Origin: Oikopleura dioica
Taxonomy: Eukaryota > Animalia > Chordata
Reading direction: 5' to 3'
Assembly: GCA_907165135.1 (NCBI GenBank)
Contig: OU015570.1
Location: 1,757,929 to 1,821,928, forward strand
DNA: 64,000 nucleotides
Both the position numbers and the translations under genes were made by a program. The notes beneath the pieces are model-generated. The model made no database searches. It was not told the origin of the DNA and worked only from the letters and a program-made list of their open reading frames with translations. Positions 1-56,084 of this stretch are shown here, one piece after another; position 1 is the stretch's first letter; each line of letters starts with the position of its first letter.

Positions 1-1
1 G

Positions 2-1944
2 CCTGATTACGCATCACACCTGGCTGGTCAAATGTTCACGAGTCGAAAAGAGAAGAGAACCTGGGATGCCTCGGAAACCCTGCCCGAGTCCGCTCCCCAT
101 CGCGAAAGTAAAATTCCACGTGACTCCGACGAAGCTCGCCCGTCTGCCAAAAATGAATTTCTCGTGCCAAATCCCGTCGACACTCCCGGAGGTCATACTG
201 TTTCCGCTGCAAACGTATCGTCTACACCCGTGAAACATCTTCCTGCTGCATCCGACGTGGATTTTGATGCGAGTCGGATCCCTCTTTCCGACAATTTAGT
301 ATCCGCTATGTCCCTCGATCACACGGAGTTTACCTCGGAGAAAACCATCTCCGAACACGAGACAAAAGTCCCTGCGAGCGATGACACTATGACATCTCAA
401 GACAAAACCACCATTCTTATGAACACGATCGATCACCTGATCGACAAGAATGCCAGTCGGCTCTCTGTCAAGAGCGAGCCTGACGCTCCAGTTCCTATGG
501 AGCTGCCGATTCTGCCCACTTTTGTGCCACGTGACCATCTATACACTCGCTGGTATTTAGCAATTTAATTCAAGCCTCCTTTAACTTACTGACCTTTTAG
601 TTACTCTCTCCAAAATTTACCGCCGAACTTGTTTCCTGAGTTCGAAATCGACGTGTTAAAGTACTATTCACGTGGCCCACTTCTTGTACACCACGTGTTC
701 GTCGATCTACGCCAGCAAGCTGGTCTTCAGCACCGAATTCTCCAGCATCCATTCTCACGTGTCAAACAATTTTTATTACATATAGGTACGGCTTTGTTTC
801 GACGCACACGACTCATATTATAGGTCGGACACTTCATTACTCACGAGTGGCTCCTCCATGCAAATTCGAACTTTCCTTTCCTCCGACCGTGGAAATTGCT
901 GCCAAAGGTTTCACCCCGCATTTGCTCGTGATCTTCGTGGTTTACTCACGTGTTATCTCACCTCACTTAGTGAATACTATCGCGGAAGTTGTTTTATCCA
1001 GCCTCGCACGGAAACTCAGAAGCGGCGCCTCACCGAGCTCGCGCATTCATTGTGCGACAACTTTTTCGCTCAGAATTTCGGACACGATTATCGGCCTCCA
1101 TTTCTCGTCGAATATGACTCGAATCGTCGACCTAGAGAGTAACCAGCCATTACCCAGTATCGTCCTTAAAACCTCACGTGAACGCAAACGAAACAACTTC
1201 ACTCTACCACGATTTTCTTGCACTCTACCACTCATCTTTCTGATCTTTGCCGTTCTTTTCTTCATCCTCGTCGCTTACGCCGTTTCCTTCTTCCGCGAAA
1301 AGCTCACAGCCCTCGCACACTACGTCCAGTACTTTCACACGTTTAGCCCGGTAATGCCTTGCAGAAAACCGCATTAATATAATATAATTTCTAGCTTCCC
1401 AAAACTCATCGACGCCGACGTCAAATTGGTTTCGACGAGCTCATGTCCGTCAGTGCTGCCGCCTATGACCCCGAGCCTGTTCCTGAGAACTCCCCCGCCA
1501 CCACCACCATGCGTTTTGGTGGTGCAAGCCCTTGGGAATGGTAAGATCAATTATCCCTCAACCATCATGACGTATTCAAGGGTCACTTTCGGGGTCGCTT
1601 CTCTGTTTTTCTTCTCGTGTCTCCTCTGCGCCTGCGGCCATCAAATAACAGCTGTCCTGAGACAATGCACGTGGAGCCTTCCGAATCCTGGATCCAGTCA
1701 CGACGATGGTGAATTCTCCGAAGTAATCGCTCTTCGACGACAAATAGCCGCAGACAAGCAAATGATCAAAGCGCGCAAGGCTCACTCAAAAGTCACGAAG
1801 AAACTTCGCGCTCTCGGCCCCGCTGACGCTGAAATTCCATCCGTCGTCCCGGCGACCGACGCTCACATTCCTACACGTGCTTCTTCTCGAAACGCAGAGC
1901 CACTCCTCCACGTCGCTGACCAAGAAAACTCCTGCTGGGCTTAA
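2..1944 (+). CDS. Predicted 5-exon gene, antisense and convergent to element A1 pol; join(<2..552,601..785,824..1350,1395..1540,1581..1944); ~590 aa (580 from ATG at 32); disordered N-terminus, two hydrophobic segments
   Basis: Four GT-AG introns (553-600, 48 nt; 786-823, 38 nt; 1351-1394, 44 nt; 1541-1580, 40 nt). Each removes an in-frame stop and together they join the ORF-track pieces 32..568, 629..823, 847..1377 and 1426..1944 into one frame. TM-like segments LIFLIFAVLFFILVAYAVSFF and VTFGVASLFFFSCLLCAC. AATAAA motifs downstream near 2020 and 2090. Confidence 0.72.
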
Positions 1945-2157
1945 ATCTCCCTTTCTTTTGTCAACAAATTTCGCAAATTATTCATCGAATTATGATAGAA
2001 ACTTGTAGCCACCATTCTAGGAATAAATTTTCTCACGTGAAAACAACTCCGGACTCAGCTTTCTTTAGAAAGGCATTAAACATTTTTAAATAAACAAAAT
2101 TCACAAAGAAAAACCAAAAAACTTAATCTACAAATAGCACGTGTAACTTTGTTACCA

Positions 2158-3093
2158 CTAGTTATTGCTCGGGCAACCCAGCAATCTTTCTTGACTAATC
2201 CTGGGGCTTTTCCACTGATCTCGATCCATAACTAACGACCTCGCGTGCATGAACTCAGGCAGTATTAGGTCTTCGTTGTGACCAAGCATCATCAGGCCTG
2301 CGTTATTTGGGTCCTTCACGCAGTCTCCGTCCACGATCGCTCTAATTGCTTTCAAGGACCACGAGTAAATCCTCTTCCTTTTCAAACCAACCTTTTCCGT
2401 GAAGCAAAGGCCCTCAAACCAATCTACTCCTTCGGGATATTCCTCCGTGCCCGTGACGACAAAGTAGGGGTTTAGGTCATTCTTCTGCCATTCCCCTTCT
2501 AAAAGAATATAATCGCCAACCTTGATTGGCTTCTCAAATTCGTCATCGTAGCTATCACCCTTCTCGTAGGGATGAAACTTAATTGGCTTTCTCGTGCGAC
2601 CTTTCTCCTGGTTCTTAATAAATGCTTTTCTGCCTCGCTCGCGACTCAACGCGATGTGTTCCAAAATTTTATTCATGTCAATTTTCAGCGGGCGATCAAA
2701 TTTATCACGTGAAAAATATTTCTCATTTGGAGTATACCCGTGTCTGCTCGGATTTTCATTCAAGCGAGCCGCTGCCTCAACTGCGACTCGCATGTGCGAT
2801 CCTTTCTTTGAGATTTCCGCCTTCAAAAACATCGTTAACTTTTGTACACGTGAGTCCATTGGTGAAAGGTGATTTTTGGACTTACTGGTCTTTTCTGGCA
2901 AATGGATCTCAATCTTCCAGTCTTTCCAAACATCCCTCGTGGCAATACTCTTATTCACACTGCAACCATCCAAAAAAATCCTAATTCTCTTCTCTCGGAT
3001 CGGACCTCTCAAAAACTCACCTACAGCTCTACACAACACTTCCGTGCCTTTATCCGCAGTCATTTCCGAGTTCTTGATCGGATACAGCTTCGT
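2158..3093 (-). pseudogene. pol: A1 integrase core and C-terminus (same frame as upstream pol, separated by premature TAA at 3094-3096)
   Basis: In-frame continuation SG*TKLYPIKNSEMTADKG...IFLDGCSVN; integrase-like core. Confidence 0.8.
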
Positions 3094-6000
3094 TTAACCC
3101 GAAATGGCTTCCGAAACGACCCAGAACTTCAACGTAGATTCCTCGTTTCCTGGGTAAGAATTTCTCGTGATAACGTCAGCGAACAAAACTTGACCTAACT
3201 CCTTGGGTGACTCGTCGTTGTATTCCTTCGGGATTACCTCGATTTTCGCCTGCTTTCTGAAGTATGTGCACCCAGTGCAGCTCCTATGGACTTTCTCGAC
3301 CACCTTGTTCATACCAGCCGACCAAAATGTGCATCTCACGTGTTTTTTAAAGGCTGTAAGGGATGTACATCCCGTAACTTTCATCATGTGTCTCACGAGC
3401 AACTCCAAATACTCCAAAGGAACTACGATCGGCTCGACCTTTTTATCTTCCACGAAGAACGCCTGTTTACACAATATTCCTACATCGTTCTCTTCCTTGA
3501 TTTCACACGACTTTCTCAGGCTTTCAGCGATCCTGTCCCCGTATGGCATTTTCCCATTCTTACGCTTCGATTCTATCGCTCTCTGCACGTGTCTGTCCGT
3601 AAGCTGCATCCTCCTGATCAGCCGAAAATTCCCCAGAAACTCCTTCATCGAGAACTTTTTCAAAAAGTCCTCCACCTCCACGTGAACTTCTCGCGCTTCC
3701 TTAATAAAAGGAGTTTCCTCCTGCGACTCATTCGATTCTTTCAATCTTTTAGCCCGTGCTCTCGTGGCCATCATGCAGATTTCCTCTTCCACCTCAATTG
3801 GCTTCAGATCTGTCAACTCCGTGGCCTGCTTCAGCGTATGTCTAAAATCATTCACGTCGTCGATCAGGAAAATGCTATCGAACATCTCAATGCTCACCAC
3901 GGGTTCCTTTGATTTGCACTCAACTCTTCCTGCGTGATTCGCAGTTAACTTTGACAAGTACCCATGGCTGTCCACCTCTACGCACATCCTACAATCCCCA
4001 TTGCATGGTTTTAGATGTGCCTCTGATCGGGACAGCATGTCTGCTAAGTCTACTTCCGCCGATCTGCAACTCTTGTACACGATCCTCACATTGTACGACA
4101 TCAGTTTCACGAGTCTTTCGTTGATCTTATAATCTTCAGCCAATTCCTGCCCGTTTAAACATCTTTTATACAACTTCTCTACCGAGATCGAGTCTGTGAT
4201 TACTGTCACTGGATTGTTCACGAGGTCAATTTCCCACGAGCAGTGAATTACTGCGTTCAGAATCCCGTGCAACTCGAGCAAACAGCTGCACCATTGCGTG
4301 TTGTTATTCGCATCCGGCCTCTTCTTGGAGTAAAGCTTATTAAGCCTTACTTTCCCTTTCTCGTCCTTTTGGTACAAAAATGCACCCGTGCCCTTGTTAC
4401 TCGAGTCAACCACGAGAAACGTCTCGAACTCTGCAACCACCGGATACAGTGAAACTAAACTTTCGTCCAGCTTTTTCTGTACTTTCTTATAGCCTGCTAT
4501 TAACTCGTCTGTCCAATTAATATGCTCCGCCAGGCTTTTCTTATTCTTCGTAGCTTCATACAACGGGGCCAAAATCTCCGTTCTAAACGGGAGGGAATCC
4601 GCAATGTATGTGATCCAGCCGAGTACTCTTTTCATGCATTTCACAGTTTTTATGCTCGTGTACTCCTGGTTCGCAATTTTCTCCAACACGTGTGTACTAG
4701 CTCTAATCGTGCCATTCTTTACTCTTCTTCCCAAAATGGAGATGTCTTTACTCAAAAACGTGCACTTCTTACCTTTCAACCTCAGATTAAACGAACTCAA
4801 CGTCTGCAAGACCGCCGCCACGTTCTCAAGAAATTCTTCCGGGGTGTTACCTACGATACGAATGTCATCGACGTATATAAAACAATATTCTCTGTGGCTA
4901 TATAAGATAATCTTTAATTTTTCACGTGCTAATAGCGGGCTCGAAATCCAACCCATCGGAAGCCTTCTGTACGCCATAGGCCCCACGTTCGGATGATCCA
5001 GACAAAAATGTGGCCACATAATCGGGTGGAAAGGGAAACAATAAAACATCGAAGAGATGTCAATGCACGCGATGAGACCCGTTTCAGTGTATTTCGCCAC
5101 CTTCTGGAGCACGTACTTGATTGAATCAGTCTGCCTCGCAGAATGCACTGTGTCATCATTGATTTTCGCTCTCTTACAATCCGCCACCACGCGGATTGAT
5201 CCCGCGCACAACTCAACCTTTGCAGTTTCCGCGTTCTTCTTCCCCACGGGAAAGAAGCTCAAGAAATGCTTCGGAGTCATGTGCTTAGGTAGGAACCCGA
5301 TCACGCCTTCACTGGCTTCCTGATCTAACTTGTCCACGAGAGCTTTCACAACTGACTCGGACATCGACTTGTTATAACTCTGTCTCACCACCTTGCCGGA
5401 CGTGTTACCCGTTATTTCGGCGTAAATTTGGAACTCTTCTCCTGGTACACAGCCCTGTGTCCCTTCGTACAGAACCTTCTCCTTCTCCAGGATCGACAAC
5501 AGTCTCTTCTTGTAATTCTTTCCGTCCGGGATGTCCTTCAATACCTCATCGTCCACGTCAATATTACACTCCATCCACGTGTTCTTCTCACGAGCCGCCT
5601 GATGCATTTTTTCCAGCTTTCTTGCATAATCCACACGTGAATCTGGGTTCATTCTACCCGTGGGAGTCATATCGATGACTGAACTTGACACACTCGGTAC
5701 CAAGGTTTCGCACCTAGCAGCCGGCATCAACCTCTCATTCTTCACGACTTCGTAAAGATTGAAGTTGTGAACCAAATTTTCTAATTCAAAAATTTCGCTT
5801 CTTTTCTTGAAACCCAAATTGCTTATGTCTACACCCCGAATCGACACTCTAGTTTCAAAGCAATTCTCTCTTGGGATACACTCGATTTTCGCGCAATTTC
5901 TTGCCAAATCGCCAAGCGAAACCAACACGTTTCTGTCACTGACTTCACAAACTTTCGCATTCACAAAGGAAATTTTAACGTTCCTACGTAGCCTTAACGT

Positions 6001-6510
6001 GAACGACACAGTGACTGGTAAAAATTTCAGCAAACTGCCTCCGGCCACCTTTCCTGCACCTGCACGTGACTTGCTTATCCTTGTTCCTTTACTTAATTTT
6101 ATCAACTCAAACAGACTCTCACTTAACAGTGACACTGATGCCCCTGTATCTAGTAGAAGTTTAAACCACACGTGTTCATTTTTATTCAAAACCTTCTCGC
6201 AATCAGGCAAACCGAAGTAAATCTGCAACAATCTTCTATCCGGCTCCTTCTCTTCGTCACGTGTTGTTTCCTCTACTGTTGCCCTTAAATTACAATCGTT
6301 AATCTCTCTAATCTTTGCGAATATCTCACCGTCTAATCCGAAGTCTTCATAACCATCTTTGTCATCCAAATCCAGCTCACTGAGTAGGGCGCCAATGTCC
6401 TCACCCGATTCGGACCCCGAATACTCACAGTGAGACCGAAGCGCCAATAACTCGTGAACACCAACATCTTCCTGGAGGGTGTAAACACGTGGACTGCCTG
6501 TCTGCTTCAC
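3094..6510 (-). pseudogene. pol: A1 protease-RT-RNase H-integrase N-terminus
   Basis: Protease LLDTGAS; RT CIDISSMFY...FIYVDDI; RNase H VVDSS...ELHG...ITDS...LADMLSR; Zn-binding SCTGC; LFAD. Confidence 0.92.
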
Positions 6511-8042
6511 CCCTTCTTTTTAATAAATCGGTTAAATTTACCTTTGATATCCGGGCGTTTGAACTGACCCTTAGGTTTGTAGAACTTACTGGGGTCTTGT
6601 TTCTTTAGTACTTCCAGATCCCTCTTGTTAAAAGACTGACCCGTGTAAACCAAAATTTTGCCCGTGCCAAACTCGACCTTCAAATCCGGACTGTTCGTCA
6701 AATGGCTCAACCCGATGTCTCTACCATTTGGTCTCGGGAAACTCGCCCTATTTCGGGCCATCCATTTTTCAGCCCGTTGCGCACCAAACTTCTTTGATAC
6801 GAAAGCGTTTAATTCAGCCTCAATTTCTTCGTCCAAAGCGTTCGCCTCGTCATCTTCGGGAACGAAACTCTTCACGTGATTCGACTTTCTATTCTTGACT
6901 GCACTGCTCTGCTGAGAACAAACAAACGCCAATGTCGACCGAAAATCGTTGGTAAACATATCTAATGCAAGTTCAACTTGTGTTAACTCCACGTGACCCT
7001 GAGCCTTCGATGCCTTGTCAATCTCGTCTAGAAACAATCTCTTTTCGACGATGACATCTCGACTCAATAAGTCCTTGAACTCTAAATGGCGCTTAGTGGC
7101 AACTTTTTCTAAAATATTCTCCCATTGCCTGGGTTCCAAGCTAACTGCGCACAAAGCCAATGCAGTAGATTCGGCGAATGGGCCAAAGATATCAGGGGTT
7201 GTGCAATACTCCTCCCTAAATCTACTTGCGCCCATTGGTGTTCCACGTGGAAATCTGTTAGGTACAACAGCATTATTTGTCATAATTTTCCTCATCAACT
7301 TTCTGATGATTTCATACGTGGAACTTGTCTTGATATGAGACAATTCACCTTTCCCGACAACCTGAAGAAATTTCAGGAATTTAAAATAGTCGTTGGTTCT
7401 GGAATTATCTGCATAATCACGTGTCATAATTTCTGCATACTGATTCAGGCTTGTCACGTAACCGTTTCGAATATCCTCGCGTGAAGTATCCTCCACGTTC
7501 TCACAAACTACTGGGCAGATCTTACGCACCACCGCCAAAACCTCGTCAGCTGCCGATGGTCTCCCATCCACGCGTTCGAAGTATCGCAGTAATGGCAATT
7601 CTAAACCCGGGAAAAACGTATCTTTGAAAGCTCGTTCACTCTCTTCACGATTCTGGACTGCATTGTCCATGAATCCATCATGCGTGGCGTTTACGGTGCA
7701 GTGGCTTAGAGTACCCCTGTACCTACCAGCTGCCCGCCAACCTTCGAACATTGCCAGCCCATCGGGAACCGATAACCGGCCCGTCAAATCAGGCAACCTG
7801 CCGAAATGCTCTCCTCATAAAAGAGGTACGTTTGAGACTTGGTCTGCAAACCTATTTTCACGATCATTTTTCCTGATTTCTCCGGAAAGAATTCCAGACA
7901 CGTGGTTAAGCCATCCAAGAATTTTCTGGGACCTAACACTATCGTCCGCTGCCGTAAAGGCCAGTGGCACGATTTCTTTCCCGGTATAATACTTCAGCCC
8001 CGGAGGACACTGAAACATACCGTTATTATCATACGCGTTCAT
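6507..8042 (-). pseudogene. gag: A1 gag-like region (ATG at 8042; TGG>TGA stop at 7815-7817; 1-nt deletion near 6515 relative to the fused ORF of A2)
   Basis: Colinear with A2 ORF 30599..33469, in which this region is fused in frame to protease; no zinc knuckle seen. Confidence 0.8.
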
Positions 8043-8193
8043 AATTATAATGGCCAAGTCAACGACAAGGTCTCGAGGTTTGAATTACTGAGTAGCAGTC
8101 CGTGCCCTAAGCCTTGGTCTCGGAATCAGGTAATTCCTTCCCTTAGCTTTTAGAAGTAAGGTCTCGGAATCAGGTAATTCCTTCCCAAAGCTT

Positions 8194-8203
8194 CTAGTCA
8201 CCA
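8194..8203 (-). promoter_or_regulatory. A1 primer-binding-site-like TGGTGACTAG
   Basis: Begins with TGG; identical in A2 (30442-30451); lies between the LTR-like region and gag. Confidence 0.6.
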
Positions 8204-8650
8204 CGATAAATTGCTCCTGCAGAAACTCAACACCCTCAATACTCTTACACGTGTAAGCGTTCTAACGTTTATTCTAGTACAGCAGTTAGGCTCAACAAAA
8301 CAAACACGGGTTCTACAGCGTCTCCAGCGGTGATGATGGAGGCCCGAGAAGGATACACGTGATGGAAGTTGATGTTGGAAGCTGCGTCTCCACGTTCACT
8401 GAACAAACCTGAAATCCGATTAGTCTGCTGTAGCTCCACTAGAATCTCTAAATAAACGTGCTTCACCTCGAGTTCGAACGCTAAGCGTATGAGCAACGGT
8501 TGGTGCGAACTCAGCCGACCGTTCTCGCGCGTAGGTTTTCTTCCTAAGGGCAGGCGAGCCTGGCCGAACTATTATTCTATCGTCTAAATCCTAACGCAGC
8601 CAAATGGAACTGGTGAATCGGAATGACCTGAAAACTCAAATAAGTATTAC
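8204..8650 (-). repeat. A1 putative 5' LTR (outer boundary not resolved)
   Basis: Homologous to 30045-30441; contains AATAAA about 70 nt upstream of the PBS. Confidence 0.55.
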
Positions 8651-9379
8651 CACACGCCTTACACACCTTTCCGCAAAATTCCAGCCTGATAAGCCACGTG
8701 AGCACTGCACAAGTACAGTTTTTCTCACCTAAACCCGCGCGCTCCGAGGAAAGAAAAAATTGACTGCATCTTTTGGAAGTCTCTGAGGTATCGTTTATAG
8801 TTTATTTATAGGTTTTCAGGTATGTGGAATTCAAAATCGTACTTTCAGAGTGATATCATGAATATTTAACAATAAAATGACAGAATAAATTAATGAAAAA
8901 AACAAATTCTAGCGCTAAATCTTTTGTTTTCGAAAAATATAAAAGTGCAGTTTAAAAGAGAATATTTGTTTATGTATAACCTCTAATTTTCAGAAGATTA
9001 TCTCAAGAGAAAGGCAAAATCGACAAAAATTGTACAGCTCCTGTAAGGGGGTTCTTTAGGCGCGCTCCCGTAATACGGGTAATATAGAGAATTTAAAAAA
9101 ATTGTTTTATTTACTCATTTAAAGATTAATTTTATAATTTTAAATTTAATTAATTGCTCATTTTTTGATATTTCTTTTAAAAGAAAGAATTTCAATTGAA
9201 TTCCGCGGCGACCATCCTAATAAGTGCCTGAGGGCGAACTCGGCGCCGCGCGCTGCGCGCCACACAAAAAGGCAAAAACTGACTGTAATAAATACAGTAT
9301 GTTAGTCAAGGGCCTCCCGTTTCTCTACGCCAAAAATGTGTTCTTATTGGTCGAACTATCAATACAGTTTGTTTCCAAA

Positions 9380-9490: not shown

Positions 9491-11729
9491 TTTAAAAATT
9501 TAAATTATTCTTTTTTAAAACTAATTATTGTTTTTAGTCCTTAAATAATCGATTTGAAAAAATTCATGATTTCACTTTATATTTTTGACTGACGTCTTAT
9601 TTATTATTTTTATTTTCTTTTTATTTTTATTTCTTATTCATCCAGTGAATTTCTGATCATATTTTGCGTGCCGACCCTCTATCACGCGATGCGCGCGTGA
9701 GCGCTTGGAAGAAAAATATTGCCCGCTGACCCAAGTTTTTGAAATGCCTTCCAAATAATTTTCATGAATTCGAGATCAGCAAATTATATTTATCATTTTT
9801 GTTTTTTAAATTTTTTATTTAGGTTTGACTAACGTACTAAACCCGTTTTTGCCATTTTTGAGGCTTATTATCTCTTTAACCCTTAATTTTTTAAGAAAAT
9901 TTAGAAAGCAAAAATTCTATTACCATTATCTAAAAGATATCAAAAATTTAAACGCATACAATATGTATTTCGGGTGGCTGATTTTTGTGCATGAACCCTA
10001 CTTATAATGTCAAAAATGAGTTTCTCTATGAAATAAGGCGCGGAGCGCATATAGACCCCTGATATTATTCTTTTAAAAGTTTGTGAACCGGGTTCATACA
10101 GATTGTGAACCGGGTTCAGAATTGTGAACCTGGGCACCCTACACTGTAGGGCCTACAGTCATTATGGGGAACTCTGGCATTAACAAGTCCAGAGTTTATG
10201 ATCTTTGCTTTTGTTCAAATCGAGCACCTTAGCCTTGAAAGGTAAACACACTCAAATAAATGGAAAAATTGCGTCGAAAAGCAAGAAGAAAATACATAGA
10301 ATACAGGTGTAGGCATGCTTGTAGCTGCAAATTTTTAAAGAAACGGCCAACTAGACGCATGCTGAAATCGTACGTTATTTTCATTTCTTTGTCTCTAGAA
10401 AAGAAAAAATTGTTTGCATATTCAATTATTCTTCTCATTTGACATTCTACTATCAAAAAGTGCAAAAATTCGGGATTTTCGCCAAAAACCGCGCAATTGC
10501 AGTTCGCGCAATTCCAAGACCTGACTGTATGTCAAGGAGGTGACAGAGCTTTTAAAATGGCTTATTTTGACCAAAAATTTTACTTAGAAAAAACGCAAAA
10601 ATTTTGACTTTTCAAAGTGCCAGCAGATTCATATGAATAAGTGCTCTATAGATAGCTTAGACAAAGTTGTATCAGAGGAAAACAGTTTTGATTGAAAATC
10701 AAGCCACAGAGGCGCTACAGAGCATTAAGAATAAGATCGGGGAAATCTATCAGAGGGAAAAAAAGGAGATCGACTTTGAAAATGGCCAAAAGCTGGGTTT
10801 TTCGCGACTATCAATTTCTTAAGGGCTATTATTAGAGGTGATTCGCCCTTTCAAATTCAATTTCCATATTAGAGTTTCCTCATTGAGAAATGAGCTTTAA
10901 AAAATGCCCCTAATTTCTGAGATAGCTAAGCCCGAAAAACAGGTTCGACCTCAAAGTTTGCCAAATCGGGGGATCCCTTATGCCGCATAAGTTATGCGAA
11001 TTTTTGGCCCTGATAGTTTTTAAAATGCTTTCGGTTTGAGGCGGAAATTTCTCTTTCAATCTGAAAAATTTTTCGCTTACGCATTTAGACGCACATTTTT
11101 GTTTTCGCTTCAGGCGAATTCGTCTTTGCTTCGCCAGATAAAGCTTCACTTTTTTATGTTCTTTCGCGCTTGTCATTGATTTTTTCGCGAATTTTATATG
11201 CCTTCCTGCAACCATCAAATCGGGTAATCGATTGGTATTAAAACTGAGTTCATGAGAATAGGAAAACTATATAAATTATTTTATATAATTAGGTTTTCTA
11301 TCGGGAAGGCGGTGCGCGGCGCGGCGCTTTTCCTATCAAATGTTCGATCCCTTATTCCGTAAATTGCGAACGCCGTTCGCAAAATAGCCTTTGCGAACGA
11401 GGCCGCCCGCCACCCCTTACTTTGAATAGATTTTCAGTAAAAAACATTTTGATATATTCATTTTGATGACGCTGATTCATAATTTGCCCTTAAAATTTGC
11501 TTTTTTTGTCCAAAAAGCAAATACAGTTTTTTATGGAATTTTTGGACATCGAATTTTTGGACATTTTTGCTATTTTAAGGGGTTTTCTTAGGACACTTTT
11601 CATAAGTGCCCGTATCAAATTTTTGGACATTTTCTGCGCCTAATTTTTAAATTTTCTGTTTTTTTTTTTGCCAGATATGAAGTTTTTTCTTATTAAAAAT
11701 CTAACTTTTTCTTTGAGAAAAATAAGATT

Positions 11730-11928
11730 TGTAAGGGTTTAGCAAATCCTGCGGCTTGCGAGAAGTTCCCCACTTTGCGTATTCTCTAGTGCGGTGAATA
11801 AAAGACAAGAACTCTGGAAAAGGTGTTGCTCGAGTTTTATTTACAAGACGACTGAAGTGCACGCGTAGCGCGCAGTAAGATGTGGCCTCAGATAAAATCT
11901 CCGGCCTCAGGGTTCGTAAAACCTCACA
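11730..11928 (-). repeat. B 3' LTR
   Basis: No difference from 17829-18027 seen by eye; PPT (TAGGGGGGA on minus strand) at 11929-11937. Confidence 0.95.
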
Positions 11929-12032
11929 TCCCCCCTAGAATTTAGTATGAGGGTACAGTAGGACAAGATTTACATCGCGTGTCGGCTTCTGAGAAGTAGT
12001 TGATGGACAGGCGAGGTCTTTTCGAAATTGCT

Positions 12033-15000
12033 CTAGTATTTCTGAGTCTTGTTCGACTCGATGTTTATACGATCTGGAGAGCGGCAATTTCTCTTTGGGC
12101 GAGAAGGTGGCGATGAACGAGCAGCAGGGCGCTTCCGCGGCGCTTTCAACATTTCTGGCGCGACCGTGGGAAAGTTCACCGGGGTCGTCGACAATGGCGG
12201 TTGCTGATTGGCTGCGTAGTCGAGATTTCCGGCCAATAGGCTCAAGTCGGACTCGTCAAGAGCAGAATTTTCAGCTCGTTCCTGGAAAGACATGGCCGAG
12301 AGAAAAGTGGCATCTTGATCCGGGTAGTCTTGAGGTTGATTAGTAGCGGGTTCCGACGAATTCTGCGACGAAGAAGCATCATCCACGACGGTTGTTTCCG
12401 GCGATTCGACGATTGTAGCTTGATGTTCTGTACTGTGAGAAATTTCCATCGGCTCTTGTTGAGACTGATGATATTCTTCTTCGACATTTTCTGCTACTGG
12501 CTTCTCCGCGTGTTTCTGCGACTGTACACCTAGACTTTCGGGATTAACCTTTTCAGGCTGAGTCGGTGTTTGATTGATCTTCGTTTCCACAGAGATATCC
12601 CCCCTAGACGAAGAACATTTTGATTCAGCTGCTCGGCTGGCTACAAGATCAGACAAATGTGCCCAAATGTAGAGTTCTTCATCTTGGTGAATTTTATCAA
12701 CATCTTTTAGATGCTCGAGTCGTTCGTCAGCTGGCGCAACATGACCTCGGAAGATCCAGTCACGCTTCTTCTTGCCATCTTCGACAAGGCAAACGCTGGA
12801 ATTGGTGCGGATCAAGCGCAACGGGCCTACCCACTTCAAACCAGATGATTTTCCGGCAGAGTTCAATTCTCGTTTAACGTACACCAACTGACCTTCGATT
12901 AAGGGCACTGGTGGCAACTTTTTGCTGTTTCGGCGTTCAGTATCAGCAGCGGCGGCCTGTTGAGAAACCTTGATCAGCTTGTTCACGCGATCGATGCGCT
13001 GGCGAATTCCGGCGGCGAAGTGTTCTGGCGAAGTATCTTTTGCTGGCACTCTGGATTTGCCGAACCAAGCCTCTTTTGGGATCTGACCAGTGGATTTACA
13101 GATGCTGGCGTTCATGCTTCGCGTAACATAAGGTAGAGCTTTAGTCCAGGTCATCTTTTCTGAATGACAAGTGCTGAAGAGACCATTTTTGAGAGTTCGG
13201 TGACTTCGTTCTACCAAGCCATTGGCTTCAGGTCTCCAAGCGCAAGTTAGCGTGTGAGCGATGTTGTTAGACTTGCAGAAGTCATCGATTACGCTGTTCA
13301 CAAAGTGGAGCCCGCGGTCTGAATGAATTTTTGTGGGCCAGAAGTCGTACTGTAGGCAGATCTGAGTAAGACCTTGTGCGGCTGACTCGGCATTATCGCG
13401 TCGAACCGGGACTGCCCATAAATAGCGCCTGAAGCTGCAGATGACCGTGAGCATGTATTTATAGCCATTTGATGGTTCTTTCATGCAGACGTAGTCAATA
13501 TTCAGGATATCACCCGGAAATCGACCTTTTTGAACTTGGCCACTAGGGGGCGCTTGAGGGCGACCGTGTGCTCCTTTTGTTTTCAGGCATGATCCACAAG
13601 ATCGAACATAATTTTCGCAGTCCTTGTCCATATCGATCCACCAAAGCATTTTTAGGTTCTCCTTCATGCGCGGAAGACCACAATGAGCCTGTAAATCGTG
13701 CGCGCGCCGGACGAATGATGCGCGGAGAGCTTCAGGCACTACAGCACGAGGACCTCGGCGATCGTCGATCACGAGGCAGTTCGATGTGCGGCACATGCGA
13801 AGTCGCTTGGCGATTTTGAGGAATTCAGCTCGACGATGGTCTTTTGCGTCGATAACGGACTCAAGGTCGATTTGTGCGCTGTTATCGCGAGCTCTGCAAA
13901 CGGCATTGATGATTTCGACCAGAAACGGGTCGTCGCGTTGGTGAGTCGCAAATTGGGCCATGTTGCCTTCCATCTGAGGATCGGACATTGGGCGGATGAT
14001 CTTGGCGACGTTTACCGAGGCGATTAGTTTCTGCGCAGTTTTCGGCAGCTGAATTTGCTCGGTGCACCAACTAGGAACATACACGACTAAGTCGCTGTCA
14101 CCGATGCTGAGGAATCGACCGGCGTTTTTCACTGGTCCAGTTTCGCGGCTTTTCAAGTTTTCTGTCCCGAATGGCCTGGAAATCCAGTCGGCGAAGTTGT
14201 TGCGCGATCCTTTTATGTACTGGAGTACAAAGTTGTATTCGCTGAGTCTGGATTGCCATCGACAAATTTTACTGTTGCGAAAGGCAGTCTTGTCCAGGTA
14301 AGTCAACGAATAGTGATCAGTGTGGACGATGAATTTTGTTCCTTTCAGGATTCTACTGAGCTTTTCGACGGTCCACAAGATTCCGAAGCACTCCTTTTCC
14401 GACACGGACCAGTTCGCTTCTGGGCGGTTGAAAGTATGTGACACTGCGGCAACGAGTTTAGTCTTGCCGTCGACAATTTGTGTAAGTACCCCTCCACAAG
14501 CAACGTCGGATGCGTCAGTGTGCAAGATGAAGGGCTCGCGGAAGTTTGGAAAGCTGATGACTGGTGGAGAAGAAAGTCGAGATTTCAACATGGAATATGC
14601 TCGATCAGCGTCGTCGGTCCATTTGAACGGCGGAGGGATCACGCCGCGTTTACATGGCACTAGCAGAGATGTAATCGGCTTCATGACATGTGCGAAAAGA
14701 TGAGCGCCTATTTCTTCGCCCATTCGTACTTCCGCAAAATCTTTGAGCCAGGTAAGGCTTCCCACCAAAGATCTCAGTTCTCTATGATTAGTTGGCGGCG
14801 GCATTGACAGCAGTGACTCGGTGAACGCTGGATCTGTTTTGACGCCCGAATCCGTGATGACGCGACCAAGAAAATGAGCTTCTTTCTGGAGAAAGTGGCA
14901 CTTTGATGGCTTCAGTTTTACTCCATGTTTGATAACCGCCTGGAGTAGTTGGCGGAGCGACTTTCTGTACTCTGCGAAGGAGCGGCCGTATTGAATCAGG

Positions 15001-17234
15001 TCGTCGACGTACGATGAAACGTTGTTCCGCATCTCTACAGTTTCGAGCATCTTGGCGACGCAGCGGCTAAATATCGCGCCCGAAAAAGTATAGCCAAATG
15101 GCACGCGTAAAAACTTGTAAGTGCGTCCTTTCCACTGAAAGGCAGTTTTGACTTGGTCCTCTTCTTTCAGACGCACTTGCCAATAGCCTGCGGATAAGTC
15201 GGCGACCGTGAAGTACATTTGGCCTTCGCCAAGGCTGGAAATCGTCTCGTCCATTCGTGCCATGGTGAACGGATCGCTCGTGTCTGCCAAGACGGTGTTC
15301 AAGGTTTCCGCGAAGTTGACTACGAATCTAGATTCTCCGCTTTTCTTGGGCACGAGCATAACTGGCGAATTCCACCCTTGGGGATCGTCGCAAAAGTCGA
15401 TGGCCTTTGTTTCGAGCATTTTATCGAGGTGCTCATCTACTAATGGGTGCTGAGCCTGCGGAATTGGGATCTGCTTCCTGTTTCGTACCTCGCCAGGTAC
15501 AGTGCGCAACTCCGCTTCTTCCGGAAATTCGCCAAGTGGCTGCGAAGAAGTCGCGAATGCGGCGTTGAGCTCCTTAAGATCTTCTGCGACCACAGTTCGG
15601 TGCTCTAGCGGCGCGTGTGAAGGCAGATCGATGCCCAGATTCTCTTTCACCCAAAGAATCGGGCTTCCATGGGGTACCTGGTGAACTTCGTTCTCACCGT
15701 TGGGCTTGGCGACTCCAACTCGGAAGCTCCGTTTGAGCTGGACCTTTTTCGGTGGAATGGTCTTGTACCGGCCGTCGAAGTTCAGGCGAAGGTAAGATTT
15801 CCCAAATTCGACGGATCGAATTTCAGGAGAACGGAGAATGTCGCGCCCGAGCAGGCATGGGCAATCCTCCAGCACATAAACTTTAGCTTCTAGTTCAGGG
15901 CCCGCGTCGAAGACCATTTTCATCTCCAGATAGCCGAGTGGGCTTTGCGCATCGCCATTCAGTCCTGAAATTGTCAGTGGAGCCGGTTTCAGCAGCGACA
16001 ATATTTTCTTGGGGACTGCCTTCTTTGGCAGAATCGTGGCGAACGACCCGGAGTCGATCTCAACGTCGGAGGCGAACGAGCAGTCGTTGTGCTTGAATTT
16101 GATGCTAGCGATGAAGGGATCTGGGACTAGCGCTGGCAAAGACTGGTACACTGGCGCAGCTCGGAAGCACGCGAGGGAAATGGCCGATTCAACCTCTTGT
16201 GCATCGCTGTCGGCGGCGGAATGAGCTGTGGTTTGTTTGACCTGTTGGTCACCTTCGTCAGAGTCTTTGCGGTTTTGGCCGCCATTTTTACTATGACCGC
16301 CCCTTCGACGGTTTTTGTTTCGATTGTCGGGCTTCGACTTGGCGTCGCGGCGTTTTCCCATATAGTGGCAGTTGGCGTCGGTCGGCGTCATATTTCGACG
16401 GAGAGTCTCAGCGGCAGCGGCTAAATCGTCTGGTCTGAAGCTGTCGGACATCTTGTCGATCAATTTGTTGTAAAGATCTGGCATCTGGAGGCGGAGCTTT
16501 TCTGAAAGAAGATGCGTTCCAAACAGGTAAAAGCAGTCTTGGACGGTCATCTCCTTTTCAGGGTTGATTCGTTTGAATTCTCGTAAACAAGCTTCATATG
16601 CCTCATTTAGTTTCTGTTGGACTTTGCCCGCGTAATCTTGGAGTGGTAGATCTGTGTCGCAGTCGATGGCAGCCGCTTCGGAGATGACTAGCAAGTGATT
16701 GAGCTTGCCGCCGAACTGCTTGTTGATGAGTTTCCGGGCAGCTTCGAAGTCTGCGCACTTGTCGAGCGCGTCACCGATTGCACGAGATGGGGCGACGTCG
16801 AGATGGGCGCGCAAGCAGCTAAGAAAGAACTGCTCCTTGTCTTTAGCTGGCTTGCCGGTGGTGCGGTCGATGATGTAACTCTTTTGAAAAGAGTTGGCGA
16901 GACCGAGGAAGTTGTCGGTTTCCTGAGGGCTGGTGCCTTGAAACTTGGAAGTCCCGAAGTGCCGGGTGAATGCCGTGTTGATGACTGAAGCGGAGATGAC
17001 GGAGCTGCCAGCGTTGGATTGAGCGGCAGGAGCGCCAAGAGGTAAGTTGCCGGACATGACGAGAGAAGTGCACCTATCTATGATACTTTGGTACTCTTCT
17101 ATCTGGTTTTTAACTTCGTCATTATCGCGAACTGTAGCTGGGAGCTTTTCGAGAGCTTCCTTCTGCGCTCGAGTGGTGCTGGCGTACTCCAAGGCTTCTT
17201 TGACACTTTTGAGGTTGTCCGGGTTGAATGACAT
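12033..17234 (-). CDS. gag-pol: B Gag-Pol polyprotein, 1733 aa
   Basis: PR EIDSGS; RT VADLSAGYWQ...YVDD; RH LHTDAS...ECFG...HTDH; IN HxxxxH..CxxC, NIDY, HSDRG, D35E (VERS); low-complexity C-terminal tail. Confidence 0.96.
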   Translation of the reverse strand: MSFNPDNLKSVKEALEYASTTRAQKEALEKLPATVRDNDEVKNQIEEYQSIIDRCTSLVMSGNLPLGAPAAQSNAGSSVISASVINTAFTRHFGTSKFQGTSPQETDNFLGLANSFQKSYIIDRTTGKPAKDKEQFFLSCLRAHLDVAPSRAIGDALDKCADFEAARKLINKQFGGKLNHLLVISEAAAIDCDTDLPLQDYAGKVQQKLNEAYEACLREFKRINPEKEMTVQDCFYLFGTHLLSEKLRLQMPDLYNKLIDKMSDSFRPDDLAAAAETLRRNMTPTDANCHYMGKRRDAKSKPDNRNKNRRRGGHSKNGGQNRKDSDEGDQQVKQTTAHSAADSDAQEVESAISLACFRAAPVYQSLPALVPDPFIASIKFKHNDCSFASDVEIDSGSFATILPKKAVPKKILSLLKPAPLTISGLNGDAQSPLGYLEMKMVFDAGPELEAKVYVLEDCPCLLGRDILRSPEIRSVEFGKSYLRLNFDGRYKTIPPKKVQLKRSFRVGVAKPNGENEVHQVPHGSPILWVKENLGIDLPSHAPLEHRTVVAEDLKELNAAFATSSQPLGEFPEEAELRTVPGEVRNRKQIPIPQAQHPLVDEHLDKMLETKAIDFCDDPQGWNSPVMLVPKKSGESRFVVNFAETLNTVLADTSDPFTMARMDETISSLGEGQMYFTVADLSAGYWQVRLKEEDQVKTAFQWKGRTYKFLRVPFGYTFSGAIFSRCVAKMLETVEMRNNVSSYVDDLIQYGRSFAEYRKSLRQLLQAVIKHGVKLKPSKCHFLQKEAHFLGRVITDSGVKTDPAFTESLLSMPPPTNHRELRSLVGSLTWLKDFAEVRMGEEIGAHLFAHVMKPITSLLVPCKRGVIPPPFKWTDDADRAYSMLKSRLSSPPVISFPNFREPFILHTDASDVACGGVLTQIVDGKTKLVAAVSHTFNRPEANWSVSEKECFGILWTVEKLSRILKGTKFIVHTDHYSLTYLDKTAFRNSKICRWQSRLSEYNFVLQYIKGSRNNFADWISRPFGTENLKSRETGPVKNAGRFLSIGDSDLVVYVPSWCTEQIQLPKTAQKLIASVNVAKIIRPMSDPQMEGNMAQFATHQRDDPFLVEIINAVCRARDNSAQIDLESVIDAKDHRRAEFLKIAKRLRMCRTSNCLVIDDRRGPRAVVPEALRASFVRRAHDLQAHCGLPRMKENLKMLWWIDMDKDCENYVRSCGSCLKTKGAHGRPQAPPSGQVQKGRFPGDILNIDYVCMKEPSNGYKYMLTVICSFRRYLWAVPVRRDNAESAAQGLTQICLQYDFWPTKIHSDRGLHFVNSVIDDFCKSNNIAHTLTCAWRPEANGLVERSHRTLKNGLFSTCHSEKMTWTKALPYVTRSMNASICKSTGQIPKEAWFGKSRVPAKDTSPEHFAAGIRQRIDRVNKLIKVSQQAAAADTERRNSKKLPPVPLIEGQLVYVKRELNSAGKSSGLKWVGPLRLIRTNSSVCLVEDGKKKRDWIFRGHVAPADERLEHLKDVDKIHQDEELYIWAHLSDLVASRAAESKCSSSRGDISVETKINQTPTQPEKVNPESLGVQSQKHAEKPVAENVEEEYHQSQQEPMEISHSTEHQATIVESPETTVVDDASSSQNSSEPATNQPQDYPDQDATFLSAMSFQERAENSALDESDLSLLAGNLDYAANQQPPLSTTPVNFPTVAPEMLKAPRKRPAARSSPPSRPKRNCRSPDRINIESNKTQKY

Positions 17235-17818
17235 ATTCAGAGACGAAGACGGAAGTGAGCTGGCGAGACGTACGAAAAGAGCTGAGCCGACTGGTTATCT
17301 GTAAGGTAAGACTGGTACCTGGGCCGATCCCTTTGACACTAGATAGTTGAAGTCTAGGTCAAATTATAGGGATAATAGGCGAGCCGAGAGCAACAGAAAT
17401 CCCCAAAACAGTTTTCAGATAGCCAACGACTGGTGGGTGCGGCGAGGAGAAGAGCGAAGTAGCAACAGCAGCGCGGGCCGGACTAGAATGCGCGAGAAAT
17501 CAGCAGCGAAACGGTTGTACCTGGCCTGACCCCAGTGAACTCAGATGGAGATCACTTTTAGGGGCTTGCGGAGCGGGAGCTAGTGGCGACGGTTGGCTGA
17601 TTCGATCAGCGGGAGTGCGCGAAAAGTTTTACGCCGTTGGTTCCACAGGAGAAGAATGCGCGGTCTTGGAACGGAAAGGGCGTCTTCCAGGAAGAATTCA
17701 GGTTAAGCGTCGACGAAGAGTTGATTGGAGAGCGGTTGATTGTTCGAGGATCCTTGTAGAATTAGATTTTACCGGTTTGTTGTACTCGAGGAGTCGTCCT
17801 GTCTTCGCACAATTACGA

Positions 17819-17826
17819 TGACACCA
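17819..17826 (-). promoter_or_regulatory. B PBS TGGTGTCA (matches 8 nt of the canonical tRNA-Leu PBS)
   Basis: 2 nt from the end of the 5' LTR. Confidence 0.65.
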
Positions 17827-17828
17827 CT

Positions 17829-18027
17829 TGTAAGGGTTTAGCAAATCCTGCGGCTTGCGAGAAGTTCCCCACTTTGCGTATTCTCTAGTGCGGTGAATAA
17901 AAGACAAGAACTCTGGAAAAGGTGTTGCTCGAGTTTTATTTACAAGACGACTGAAGTGCACGCGTAGCGCGCAGTAAGATGTGGCCTCAGATAAAATCTC
18001 CGGCCTCAGGGTTCGTAAAACCTCACA
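17829..18027 (-). repeat. B 5' LTR
   Basis: Direct repeat of 11730-11928. Confidence 0.95.
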
Positions 18028-30044: not shown

Positions 30045-33000
30045 CTTTCGTAAGATTATAGACGGTAGAATTGGGTACTGGTCAGGCTCGCCTGCCCCGA
30101 GGAAGAAAACCTACGCGCGTGACCGGTCGGCTGAGGCTGCACCCAACCGATCTCATACGCTTAGCGTTCGTTTACTCGAGGTGAAATACGTTTATTTAGA
30201 GATTCTAGAGAAGCCACACCAAACTAATCTAAATTCAGGTTTGTTCAGTAATCGCGGAGACGCAGCTTCCTACATCGATCATCATCACGTGTATACATCT
30301 CGGGCCTCCATCGTCGACGCTGGAGACACTGTAGATCCCGTGCTGTTTGTTTGAGTTAACTGCTGTACTAGAATAAACGTATCGAACGCTTACACGTGTA
30401 AGATAACGAGGGTGTTGAGTTTCTGCAGGGGCAATTTATCGTGGTGACTAGAAGCTTTGGGAAGGAATTACCTGATTCCGAGACCTTACTTCTAGAGGCT
30501 GAGGGCAGGAATTACCTGATTCCGAAACCAAGGCTTGGGCACGAACTGCAACTCAGTTATTCAAACCTCGAGTCCTCGTTGTTGACTTGGCCTACAATAT
30601 GAACGCGTATGATCATAATGGAATGTTTCAGTGTCCTCCGGGGCTGAAATATTATTCCGGAAAGGAAATCGTACCACTGTCCTTTACGGCGGCGGACGAT
30701 AGTGTAAGATCCCAGAAGATTCTGGGATGGCTCAATCACGTGTCGGGAATTCTCTCTGGAGAAATCCGAAAGAGCGATCGAGAAAACCGGTTTGCTGACC
30801 AGGTTTCAAATGTCCCTCTCCTTTGGGGCGAGAATTTCGGCAAATTGCCTGATTTGACGGGCCGGTTATCGGTGCCTGATAGTCTTGCGATGTTCGAAGA
30901 GTGGCGTTTAGCTGGTAGATACCGTGGAGTGTTAGAAAATTGCACGGTCAACGCCACCCATGATGGGTTTGCGGATAATGAATTCCAGGACCGGATGGCG
31001 AGTGAGAGGGCTTTCAAGGAAACGTTCTTTCCAGGCCTAGACTTGCCGCTACAGCGTTATTTCGAACAGGTTGACGGTAGACCGACGGCGGCTGACGAAG
31101 TACTCGCGGTAGTAAGAAAGATTTGTCCAATTGTTTGTGTAAACGTGGAGGACACTTCACGTGAAGATATTAAAAATGGTTATGTAACGAATCTAAACCA
31201 TTACGCTAAAACTATGACTCGTGATTACGCCGATAACTCACGCACGAATGATTACCTGAAGTTTTTGAAATTTGTTCAAGTTGTTGGTAAGGGAGAGTTA
31301 TCCCATATCAAGACCAGTTCCACTTACGAAGTAATCAGAAAGTTAATGAAAAAGATAATGACAAATAACGAAGTGATTCCAGGTAGATTCCCACGTGGCA
31401 CCCCAATGGGCGCAAGTCGCTTCAGAGAGGAGTTTTGCACAACCCCAGATAGATTCGGGCCGTTTGCAGAAGCAACAGCATTGGCGCTATGCGCAGTAAG
31501 CTTGGATTCAAAGAAATGGGAGCAAATTCTTGAGAAGGTTGCGGCAAAGCGACACTTGGAGTTCAAGGAACTGTTGAGCAGAGACGTGATTGTGGAAAAA
31601 AGGCTTCTCTTGGACGAAATCGACAAGTTGTCTAAAGCTCAAGGGCACGTGAAATTGACGCAGGTGGAATTGGCGCTAGATATGTTCACCAATGATTTCC
31701 GTTCAACACTGGCGTTTGTCTGTTCTCAGCAGACCATGGCAGTCAAGAATAGGAAATCAGATCACGTGAAGAGTTTCGTTCCCGAAGAAGACGAGGCGAA
31801 CGCTTTGGATGAAGATATAGAGGCGGAGTTTAATGCTTTTGTCTCTAAAAAGTTTGGCGCACAGCGAGCGGAAAAATGGATGGCGCGAAACAGAGCAAGT
31901 TTCCCGCGGCCAAATGGAAGAGAGATGGGCTTGAGTCAGCTGACGAATAGCCCAGATTTAAAGGTTGAATTTGGCTCGGGGAAGATTTTAGCCTACACGG
32001 GTCAGTCCCTGAATAAGAGGGATTTGGAGACATTGAAGAAGCAAGACCCGGGTAAGATTTTCAAGCAAAAGGGCCAGTTCAAACGCCAAGATATAAAAGG
32101 AAAGTTCAACCGATTTATTAAAAGGAAAGGCGTGAGGCAAGCTGGAAGTCCACGTGTATACACGCTTCAAGACGAGGTCGGTGTGCACGAGTTGCTTGCA
32201 CTTCGCTCGCAGTGCGAATATTCAGGCTCTGAGTCTGGCGAAGACATCAGCGCTTTGATCAACGAACTTGACCTGGAGGAGAAAGATGGCTACGAAGACT
32301 TTGGCTTAGATGGTGAGATTTTCGCTAAAATACGAGAGGTAAATGACTGTTATTTAAGGGCGACAATAGAAGAGACAACACGTGACGACAACAAGGAACC
32401 GGACAGACGTTTGCTGCAAATTTACTTTTGCCTACCTGATTGCGAGAAAGTTATGAATAAATCAGAACACGTGTGGTTTAAATTGTTACTGGATACGGGT
32501 GCATCTGTATCGCTTTTGAGCGAAGCTTTGTTTGATTTGATTAGGCCTTGCAGAGGCACAAAGGTGAAGAGAGCACGTGCAGGCGCAGGCAAAGTAGCTG
32601 GTGGAAGTTTACTTAGGTTTCTCCCAGTGACCGCGTCGTTCACGTTGAGGCTGCGGAGGAATGTGAAAATCTCGTTCGTGGACGCGAAGGTCTGCGAGGG
32701 AGATGATAGAAACGTGTTGGTGTCTTTAGGAGATTTAGCAAGGAATTGCGCTAAAATTGAATGCATCCCGAGAGATAATTGCTTTGAAACTAAGGTTTCG
32801 CTTCGTGGAATGGACATCAGCAATTTGGGCTACAAGAAGAGCAGCCAGGTCTTCGAATTAGAGAATTTAATTCATAATTTCAACTTATATGAAGTTGTGA
32901 AGAATGAAAGATTGTTTAAAGCCTCGAGGTGTGGGACATTTGTGCCAAGCGTCTCGAGTTCCGTTATAGACATGTCACCCACGAATCGCCTCAACCCAGA

Positions 33001-54592: not shown

Positions 54593-55029
54593 CGTCGATT
54601 TGTTGTTTCTCCGCGACGTCCAAATTTATGTTGCCTGTCGGCGCCTCTGAGCAATTTCTCGTCAGCAGGTGAGATCAGCTGCTTTCCAAATTTAGGCCAT
54701 CGGCAGGTCATCGGGTCATCTGATTCCCGGAGTCGCATCTCATCTGATCTGATTTAATTTCTCGCTTCCATGTGTTCCAGAAAATCGGTGTTAATTTCGT
54801 AAAGAGAGTCAGAAAAATTTTTGTCCGGACAAAATTTTTGGTTCTTTAAAACTCTGTAGATTCTTCATTATTAATGGCAACGGGTTATTTAACAGCTTGA
54901 TTTGTTCTTCTTGACGAGCTCTTCAATCTCCACTTCGCGGAATTTGTCTGGGATTGCTAGATTTCGTTCTATCGCCAAGGCTAAATTCAAATTTCTTCAT
55001 AATTACGAAGAAAAATTTCGGCGATTTCC

Positions 55030-56063: not shown

Positions 56064-56084
56064 GCTATTTGGCATTTTCCTGGT

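Follow-up and report, generated by a model that had tools for sequence, protein, structure and literature searches.

In this study, a 64,000-nt stretch of the Oikopleura dioica genome (contig OU015570.1 of assembly GCA_907165135.1, positions 1,757,929 to 1,821,928; hereafter the window) was investigated. At its left end, a Ty3/gypsy long terminal repeat (LTR) retrotransposon lying on the minus strand is accompanied, directly behind its integrase and on the plus strand, by what is very likely a spliced gene borne by the element itself (positions 2-1944). Given such a gene, it is highly probable from the sequence that the product is a membrane protein, and given both, a role in cell-to-cell passage is about an even prospect. 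The reading as a whole, namely an element-borne spliced accessory gene whose membrane protein aids cell-to-cell passage in place of env, is put forward tentatively, with its odds judged to be somewhat short of even. The gene is considered very likely element-borne because spliced-looking antisense genes occupy the same slot in two related elements, L001 and L005, and because the hexamer CACGTG, which is specific to this element family, runs through its exons. The original prediction of an element-encoded, antisense, spliced gene for a non-Env membrane protein is thus retained in qualified form, and it is strengthened by the same slot, intron position and membrane-anchor region in L001, by the second multi-intron antisense gene in L005, and by a motif and base composition that continue through the exons.

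Structure of the antisense frame and its relatives

Recomputation of the proposed four GT-AG introns of 38-48 nt and frame of about 590 amino acids gave 590 codons with no internal stop across 2-1944. The spliced frame runs from base 2 to the stop at 1942-1944, and its 5' end is open, lying beyond the window edge. All four introns start with GTA, and the stop lists agree that each contains a stop in the frame of the preceding exon, as had been claimed. Exon 1 as seen (2-552, on the plus strand like all parts of the gene) is rich in Ser, Pro, Asp and Thr, and its product is probably disordered; both codon models choose its frame, and its codon-position chi2 gives p<0.0001. Intron 1 (553-600, 48 nt, GTATTT..TTTTAG, phase 2, 69% AT) is followed by exon 2 (601-785, chi2 p=0.0024) and by intron 2 (786-823, 38 nt, GTACGG..TTATAG, phase 1, 55% AT), the weakest junction, which has a rival at 672-715. 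Exon 3 (824-1350), whose frame is uncertain over 824-1140, carries a basic patch (1168-1188) and then the first predicted transmembrane segment (TM1, 1216-1293). Intron 3 (1351-1394, 44 nt, GTAATG..TTCTAG, phase 0, 70% AT) leads into exon 4 (1395-1540), which harbors an RRRR furin-type motif (1410-1421), a Thr/Pro-rich stalk and a GGASPWEW motif, and which aligns with the end of L001 exon A. Intron 4 (1541-1580, 40 nt, GTAAGA..TTCAAG, phase 2) falls within a Trp codon, and the L001 intron at 6483-6415 lies at the aligned codon and in the same phase. Exon 5 (1581-1944) contains the second predicted segment (TM2) with its Cys cluster (to 1641), a basic charged tail (1726-1812) and the stop. The gap between the converging stops (1945-2157) has the expected length of 213 nt and displays AATAAA at 2022 and 2089, ATTAAA at 2075 and two CACGTG sites; as had been noted before, no LTR lies there, since blastn gave no copy of the LTR (8204-86xx) within 1-2157.

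To set this splice model against chance, an exact search for the fewest introns opening the region was applied to it, to 300 dinucleotide shuffles and to 81 antisense-of-coding control windows. Under a GT-AG rule with introns of 36-50 nt, the real region opened with four introns, none of the 300 shuffles opened with eight or fewer, and two of the 81 control windows opened, with seven and eight introns; the opposite strand of the region could not be opened under this rule with up to eight introns. Under the loosest rule (GT, GC or GA donors, 36-70 nt), the real region needed three introns, while no shuffle of the 300 opened with four or fewer and a single control of the 81 needed four. G was more frequent at codon position 1 than at position 2 in all five exons, the codon-position chi2 reached p<0.05 in four of the five, and GC was 30-45% in introns against 44-58% in exons.

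A scan of metagenome contigs produced 84 pattern matches that were resolved into 12 loci, five of which extend past the integrase. Among these five, L001 carries a related gene and L005 a dissimilar one, L004 has an antisense transmembrane open reading frame (ORF) 3.5 kb further on, and none was seen in L006, which ends before the matching place, or in L009, which has a sense ORF there instead. In a reverse transcriptase (RT) tree built by a quick method from 33 rows, from which L002, L003 and L010 were excluded by an ORF-length filter, the window element was sister to L001/P0001 (SH-aLRT 95), then to L005 (91) and then to L004/L006 (94), and it fell in a different clade from the env-bearing element of the same window. 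P0001, an Oikopleura dioica protein, is the closest named pol relative of the window element (45% identity; 18 matches in all), and the pol of L001 equals it at 655 of 683 residues.

Between the antisense exons of L001 (7262-6484, 6414-6048 and 6003-5887) lie two AT-rich GT-AG stretches, one of 69 nt and one of 44 nt; GC is 20-32% in these introns and 52-54% in the exons. A further acceptor-like end stands at 7263, and AATAAA occurs in the 105 nt that separate this gene from the integrase stop. When the spliced products of the window gene and of L001 were aligned locally and without guidance, a match over about 135 residues scored 57, against 38.1+/-5.2 for shuffles, of which one in 500 scored as high. 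The alignment places two intron-split Trp codons in register, both in phase 2 and right before a hydrophobic helix ending in Cys, and the nine-residue window ending at this Trp junction, chosen after the alignment was seen, ranks in the top 3 of 239,784 pairs. The RX(K/R)R motif ends 40 residues upstream of that Trp in the window gene and 42 residues upstream in L001. As judged from the sequences, both intron 4 and common descent with L001 find their strongest independent support in the shared Trp-codon intron, and the element-borne antisense gene is probably old. In L005, removal of GT-AG introns of 39, 46, 38 and 45 nt leaves 454 antisense codons without a stop in the corresponding slot (L005 5419-3813, minus strand), with boundaries set by eye and without a shuffle control; its product of about 400 aa from Met55 is apparently soluble and matches no Pfam family, and an intron-like stretch lies behind its stop. 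Further ORFs were noticed on both strands of L005 beyond this gene, out to 8045.

In the window, 50 CACGTG sites were counted where 8.0+/-2.8 would be expected: 32 lie in 1-8700, 14 in a second copy of the family (30051-34036) and four in the remaining 51,280 nt. Its continuation through the gene, put earlier at about nine sites, was borne out by 11 sites in 1-2157, nine of them in exons. Under synonymous shuffling, the excess was 17 sites against 2.3 in gag-pol, 12 against 1.9 in the second copy and 9 against 0.8 in the spliced frame. The two copies, which are 78% identical, share 13 of 15 sites, whereas they share 24% of hexamers in general, and the sites have a median spacing of 228 nt and lie in several codon phases. 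This conservation points to selection on the motif, with a contribution from amino-acid constraint, and on sequence grounds CACGTG marks the antisense gene as part of the element family. The conserved studding also gives a separate handle on how the family marks its own sequence.

Predicted protein and proposed role

The two transmembrane-like segments claimed for the product correspond to hydrophobic peaks at aa 371-408 (Kyte-Doolittle 2.94) and aa 468-497 (2.05), with RRRR between them at aa 427-430 and SCLLCAC at aa 482. The RRRR patch is present as described, and it is better read as a furin-type cleavage motif in a predicted lumenal loop; the RX(K/R)R pattern stands in register with that of L001, and cleavage is predicted from the motif. 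TM1 has six Lys or Arg residues before it and two after, and TM2 has one before and 11 in the following 60 residues, of which one falls in the 20 residues after the helix, so placed that the basic stretch begins about 30 residues past TM2. The predicted loop has no Cys, and four scattered Cys lie upstream of it. The positive-inside rule allows topology to be predicted from such charge flanks. Because this bias predicts TM1 with its N-terminal side and TM2 with its C-terminal side in the cytosol, the RRRR motif and the Thr/Pro-rich stalk are predicted to be lumenal. The helix of L001 has no Lys or Arg before it, one within 20 residues after and 18 within the next 60, and the unit common to both genes comprises the cleavage motif, the stalk, an aromatic membrane-proximal motif, the helix, the Cys cluster and the basic tail.

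From these features, we propose that a plus-strand mRNA would be made from a promoter in the unseen 3' LTR or close to it, and would be spliced and then polyadenylated in the 213-nt gap. The introns would persist because the genomic RNA copied in the LTR replication cycle is the other strand, on which they are not splice substrates. The N-terminal part of the protein would lie in the cytosol; TM1 would cross the membrane, a lumenal loop of some 65 residues would carry the RRRR motif and the stalk, and TM2 would lead back to a basic cytosolic tail, with a Cys cluster that could be palmitoylated. After a cut at RRRR, about 40 outer residues would remain attached to TM2 and the tail, and this stub by analogy resembles small cell-cell fusion proteins in outline, and a processed surface membrane protein of this kind would help particles to cross between cells. 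If the protein does move particles between cells, an Env-independent route of infection would be added to those known.

With reference to the literature, extra antisense ORFs behind pol are found in plant and fungal gypsy elements, where their function is described as unknown, and a review urges attention to antisense and spliced transcripts (PMC7264820, as far as its available text goes). These aORF-3R genes, such as maize Grande gene23, those of rice RIRE2, Silene Retand and bean PvRetro13, and Botrytis Boty brtn (PMC7264820, PMC8365987), resemble the window gene in lying antisense behind pol of Ty3/gypsy elements, in lacking database homologs and in presumably having their own promoter, and the window gene is likewise antisense to gag-pol and directly behind pol. 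They differ, in the available descriptions, in their plant or fungal hosts and in nuclear localisation or nuclear-type domains (PMC7264820), whereas the present gene belongs to a chordate, is interrupted by four or more short introns, and has a membrane protein as its predicted product. Our literature search, which did not cover Volff et al. 2004, Zhao et al. 2011 and the supplement of PMC4402516, found no antisense spliced gene in a retrotransposon of a tunicate or other animal. The multi-intron versions, the old conserved intron and the membrane-protein cargo would extend the design of an extra antisense gene to animals.

Within the same host group, the Tor elements are described as expressed in somatic tissue beside the germline, some with Env and some with env genes under an internal promoter, and injection and reporter tests on such elements have already been done (PMC4402516, main account). 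Tor Env of Oikopleura dioica is likewise the product of a third gene behind pol and a transmembrane protein with a furin site; it differs in being encoded in sense downstream of pol and in having a fusion tripeptide and seven conserved Cys, and the available part of that report mentions no antisense gene (PMC4402516). Identity with Tor Env was rejected, as the present gene is on the opposite strand and has no large ectodomain with seven Cys before a C-terminal transmembrane segment; tblastn of the gene against the env of the same window gave no match at E<1.

A nearer functional parallel is offered by env-less Drosophila elements, which are reported to enter the oocyte by means of a small transmembrane protein (bioRxiv 10.1101/2025.03.14.642691, in its available part). 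The sORF2 protein of the MDG1 group and the reovirus FAST proteins treated there share with the present case, variously, an env-less element, a transmembrane protein with a short ectodomain (here only after the predicted cleavage) and a basic tail. They are given as 60-210 aa long, single-pass, often myristoylated and with a basic patch at most 15 residues from the helix, whereas the window protein has at least 590 aa, is two-pass, and is encoded antisense and spliced. ORF3 of the rotifer element Vesta4 has similar parts in another order: in the text available (PMC5408684), where it is not described as antisense, it is 220-230 aa long, its Cys residues separate the helices and RXXR comes behind both. 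In the window protein, RXXR stands in the loop that links the helices, and the Cys cluster is at the end of TM2. Joining these strands, we consider it conceivable, if doubtful, that a chordate Ty3/gypsy lineage keeps an exchangeable, intron-rich antisense slot behind its integrase, filled here by the two-pass precursor of a furin-activated cell-cell fusogen that exposes a FAST-like stub. Were this so, it would constitute a third route from soma to germline beside Env and sORF2, with its own promoter and splice control opposite gag-pol.

Several observations weigh against the proposed role or against the gene as drawn. Neither the window nor L001 nor L005 shows a 3' LTR beyond the gene, as each of them ends first or lacks an LTR pair, and an env gene beyond the window edge is possible. 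Similarity to L001 is limited to about 135 residues around TM2, exon-by-exon alignments are no better than shuffles, and nothing in the visible part of L001 corresponds to TM1. In the L005 protein, no strongly hydrophobic segment follows Met55, and it resembles neither the window product nor that of L001 (27 and 132 of 150 shuffles scored as high); because this slot product is apparently soluble and dissimilar, the clade does not always need a membrane protein there. Membership of the FAST/sORF2 group was rejected on the length of at least 590 aa, the two hydrophobic segments and the single Lys or Arg in the 20 residues after TM2, against at least three within 15 for that group; the window protein may work alike all the same, by analogy. 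No homolog or fold was found that supports any function. Pfam searches matched nothing in any of the five exons (best E=0.07), DNA-binding domains included, nor in the pieces of L001, L004 and L005 that were searched. Exon 3 had no homolog among proteins of 308-2000 aa or among 1.84 billion representatives, L001 exon A had none among proteins of 455-2000 aa, sequence searches of the PDB gave no match, the ESM Atlas gave no usable match for exon 5, and no relatives appeared in the viral contigs or prokaryote genomes searched. The AlphaFold single-sequence models were poor (pLDDT 52 and 54), with one confident helix in exon 3 (exon residues 133-173), and Foldseek with the L001 model returned nothing at E<=0.001 in the viral or PDB libraries. 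In the same Atlas, L001 exon A scored 0.90-0.92 against clusters of phage minor capsid protein 2 with 125-161 shared features, which is a weak lead only.

The RNA evidence has to be weighed here as well. No run was indexed as containing window 1-2400. Four of 24 runs were mapped to window 1-9000 and four of 24 to L001, with junctions listed from at least three reads. Window 1-9000 received 1, 1, 0 and 0 reads, which are too few to serve as a test. L001 received 121 reads in X4, eight contigs in X10 and nothing in the other two runs, so that X4 and X10 do contain its family, with a depth of 0-2 over the antisense gene and no junction listed. A 151-nt X10 contig (depth 2.6) contains the L001 intron 6483-6415 unspliced, with flanks of 57 and 25 nt, which also counts against the gene as drawn; this contig could be genomic-sense RNA or of DNA origin. 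We infer the splicing of the antisense gene from its sequence. In X4, two non-canonical skips within the L001 pol (4120-4276 and 4393-5407, five and three reads) probably reflect deleted copies.

Competing explanations

The strongest competitor, which we regard as rather unlikely, is an element-borne membrane protein with another job, one that alters the host cell by blocking reinfection, dampening defence at the endoplasmic reticulum (ER) or plasma membrane, or anchoring particles, with no cell-to-cell movement. All evidence for an element-borne gene fits it equally, and the dissimilar, apparently soluble protein in the L005 slot is what exchangeable cargo for host manipulation would give. 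On the other side, the part kept with L001 (cleavage site, stalk, helix, Cys cluster and basic tail) is the kit of envelope-like and cell-fusion proteins, and the Pfam searches of the window exons and of the L001 and L004 pieces found no enzyme domain.

An improbable explanation is that the product is a membrane-tethered regulator of the CACGTG sites of the element, in which a cut in the lumenal loop would free the cytosolic N-terminal part to bind this E-box-like palindrome. SREBP, with its topology and its E-box binding, is the natural likeness. A hairpin of two predicted helices whose loop bears a basic site for cleavage suits such a regulator, as do the family specificity of CACGTG and its conservation at 13 of 15 sites, and mobile elements are known to encode proteins that target sequences specific to their family (PMC5735166, available part). 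The VANC proteins of VANDAL elements described there share with the present case a short family-specific motif repeated along a mobile element that has an extra gene; they differ in belonging to DNA transposons and in having their sites in non-coding regions, whereas here the motif lies within coding regions and a membrane location is predicted for the extra protein. A motif excess does not accompany the extra gene across the relatives: L001 has a related gene yet no CACGTG and no TM1 in view, and neither L001 nor L005 has any hexamer excess near that of CACGTG, though both carry antisense genes. CACGTG is not tied to this gene type, because it is absent from L001. No exon holds a DNA-binding domain by Pfam. 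Host bHLH factors would suffice to explain an E-box. The notion that every relative has its own motif was also rejected: in a test by synonymous shuffling, from which L002 and L003 were dropped for want of a long ORF, a standout excess was confined to the window family and L008 (placed with P0004 in the tree). In L008 (1-5121), a distant relative, TCGCGA occurs 18 times against 1.9 and CGCGAA 29 times against 4.2 under such shuffling.

Still less probable is a real gene with a partly wrong splice model, with intron 2 placed differently, or with intron 3 extended and intron 4 absent, so that the protein lacks RRRR or has a different middle. The intron set is not unique: there are six four-intron solutions at 36-50 nt, all with 553-600 and 1351-1394, and 18 three-intron solutions at 36-70 nt, and among the minimal solutions introns 2 and 4 have alternatives. 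The two codon models agree on exon 1, 1220-1350 and exon 5 and disagree on 824-1140, where the model trained on L001 exons favours another frame, and on exon 4, where the model trained on other ORFs slightly favours another frame in 1395-1540. Against this stand the weaker donors of the alternative introns (GTGGCC, GTTTAG and GTACTT, against GTAATG and GTAAGA), the L001-trained model, which favours the proposed exon 4 frame (7.1 against -19.5), and the alignment with L001, which requires that frame and picks out intron 4. A second frame at 786-1139 is also open; it was rejected, having no similarity to L001 and, on reading the sequence, no short intron linking it to the TM1 frame.

A host gene abutting an element that lost its 3' end is the least probable explanation, favoured by the unseen 3' LTR, by intron sizes of the host type (peak 47 nt in the available part of PMC4122922) and by an intact antisense frame beside a gag-pol broken three times, and opposed by the coincidence required, in which each of three diverged elements would stop some 100-200 nt short of a spliced gene running towards it and two of these genes would be related, by the family motif standing in the exons at gag-pol density or above, by exon GC (44-58%) and GC skew (-0.19 to -0.30) that match pol (46%, -0.24) and not the flank (35%, -0.01), and by the lack of an exon 3 homolog among the 1.84 billion representatives.

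The host element and other features of the window

The window is packed with retroelement ORFs. The pol of the host element (2158-6519, minus strand) encodes protease, RT, RNase H and integrase, an order that fits a Ty3/gypsy LTR retrotransposon; Pfam placed RVT_1 and RT_RNaseH above their cut-offs, the protease and integrase zinc finger gave weak matches in the correct order, and the integrase core had no Pfam match, yet aligns with relatives. The gag region spans 6507-8084 (minus). Gag-pol of this copy is broken at three places, namely in-frame stops at 7815-7817 in gag and 3094-3096 in pol and a frame break near 6510; the sister copy reads through 7815-7817 and the break near 6510. A primer-binding-site-like TGGTGACT (8194-8203, minus) lies directly behind the LTR end, is identical in the sister copy and L001, and matched no tRNA. 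The putative 5' LTR (8204-8650, minus) has an outer end that is not fixed and aligns with the sister copy out to 8593. Within 1-2157, the sense strand of the element has no ORF of more than 93 codons, hence no sense env in that stretch. The second family copy (30051-34036, plus) breaks off within RT and is therefore uninformative about the antisense gene. In both copies, a sequence of about 30 nt is repeated twice between the primer-binding site and gag (8110-8190).

Elsewhere in the window, an element at 11729-18027 with identical 200-nt terminal repeats and a single gag-pol ORF of 1753 codons is apparently a recent insertion. The env-bearing element (52595-61512, minus) has the order gag-pol-env, and its third ORF of 676 codons, in which an RKKR site precedes a hydrophobic peptide and a transmembrane segment lies at the C-terminus, looks like an ordinary Tor env.

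Among the relatives, the antisense ORF at the end of L004 (7087-7593), 3.5 kb behind pol and possibly outside the element, has one transmembrane-like segment. The sister elements L004 (3600-7594) and L006 (6040-9406) have in common several short sense ORFs behind the integrase, at about 40% amino-acid identity and among inverted repeats of 28-54 nt, and L009 (2-8641) displays an exceptionally long gag-pol ORF of at least 2879 codons followed by a sense ORF of 410 codons.

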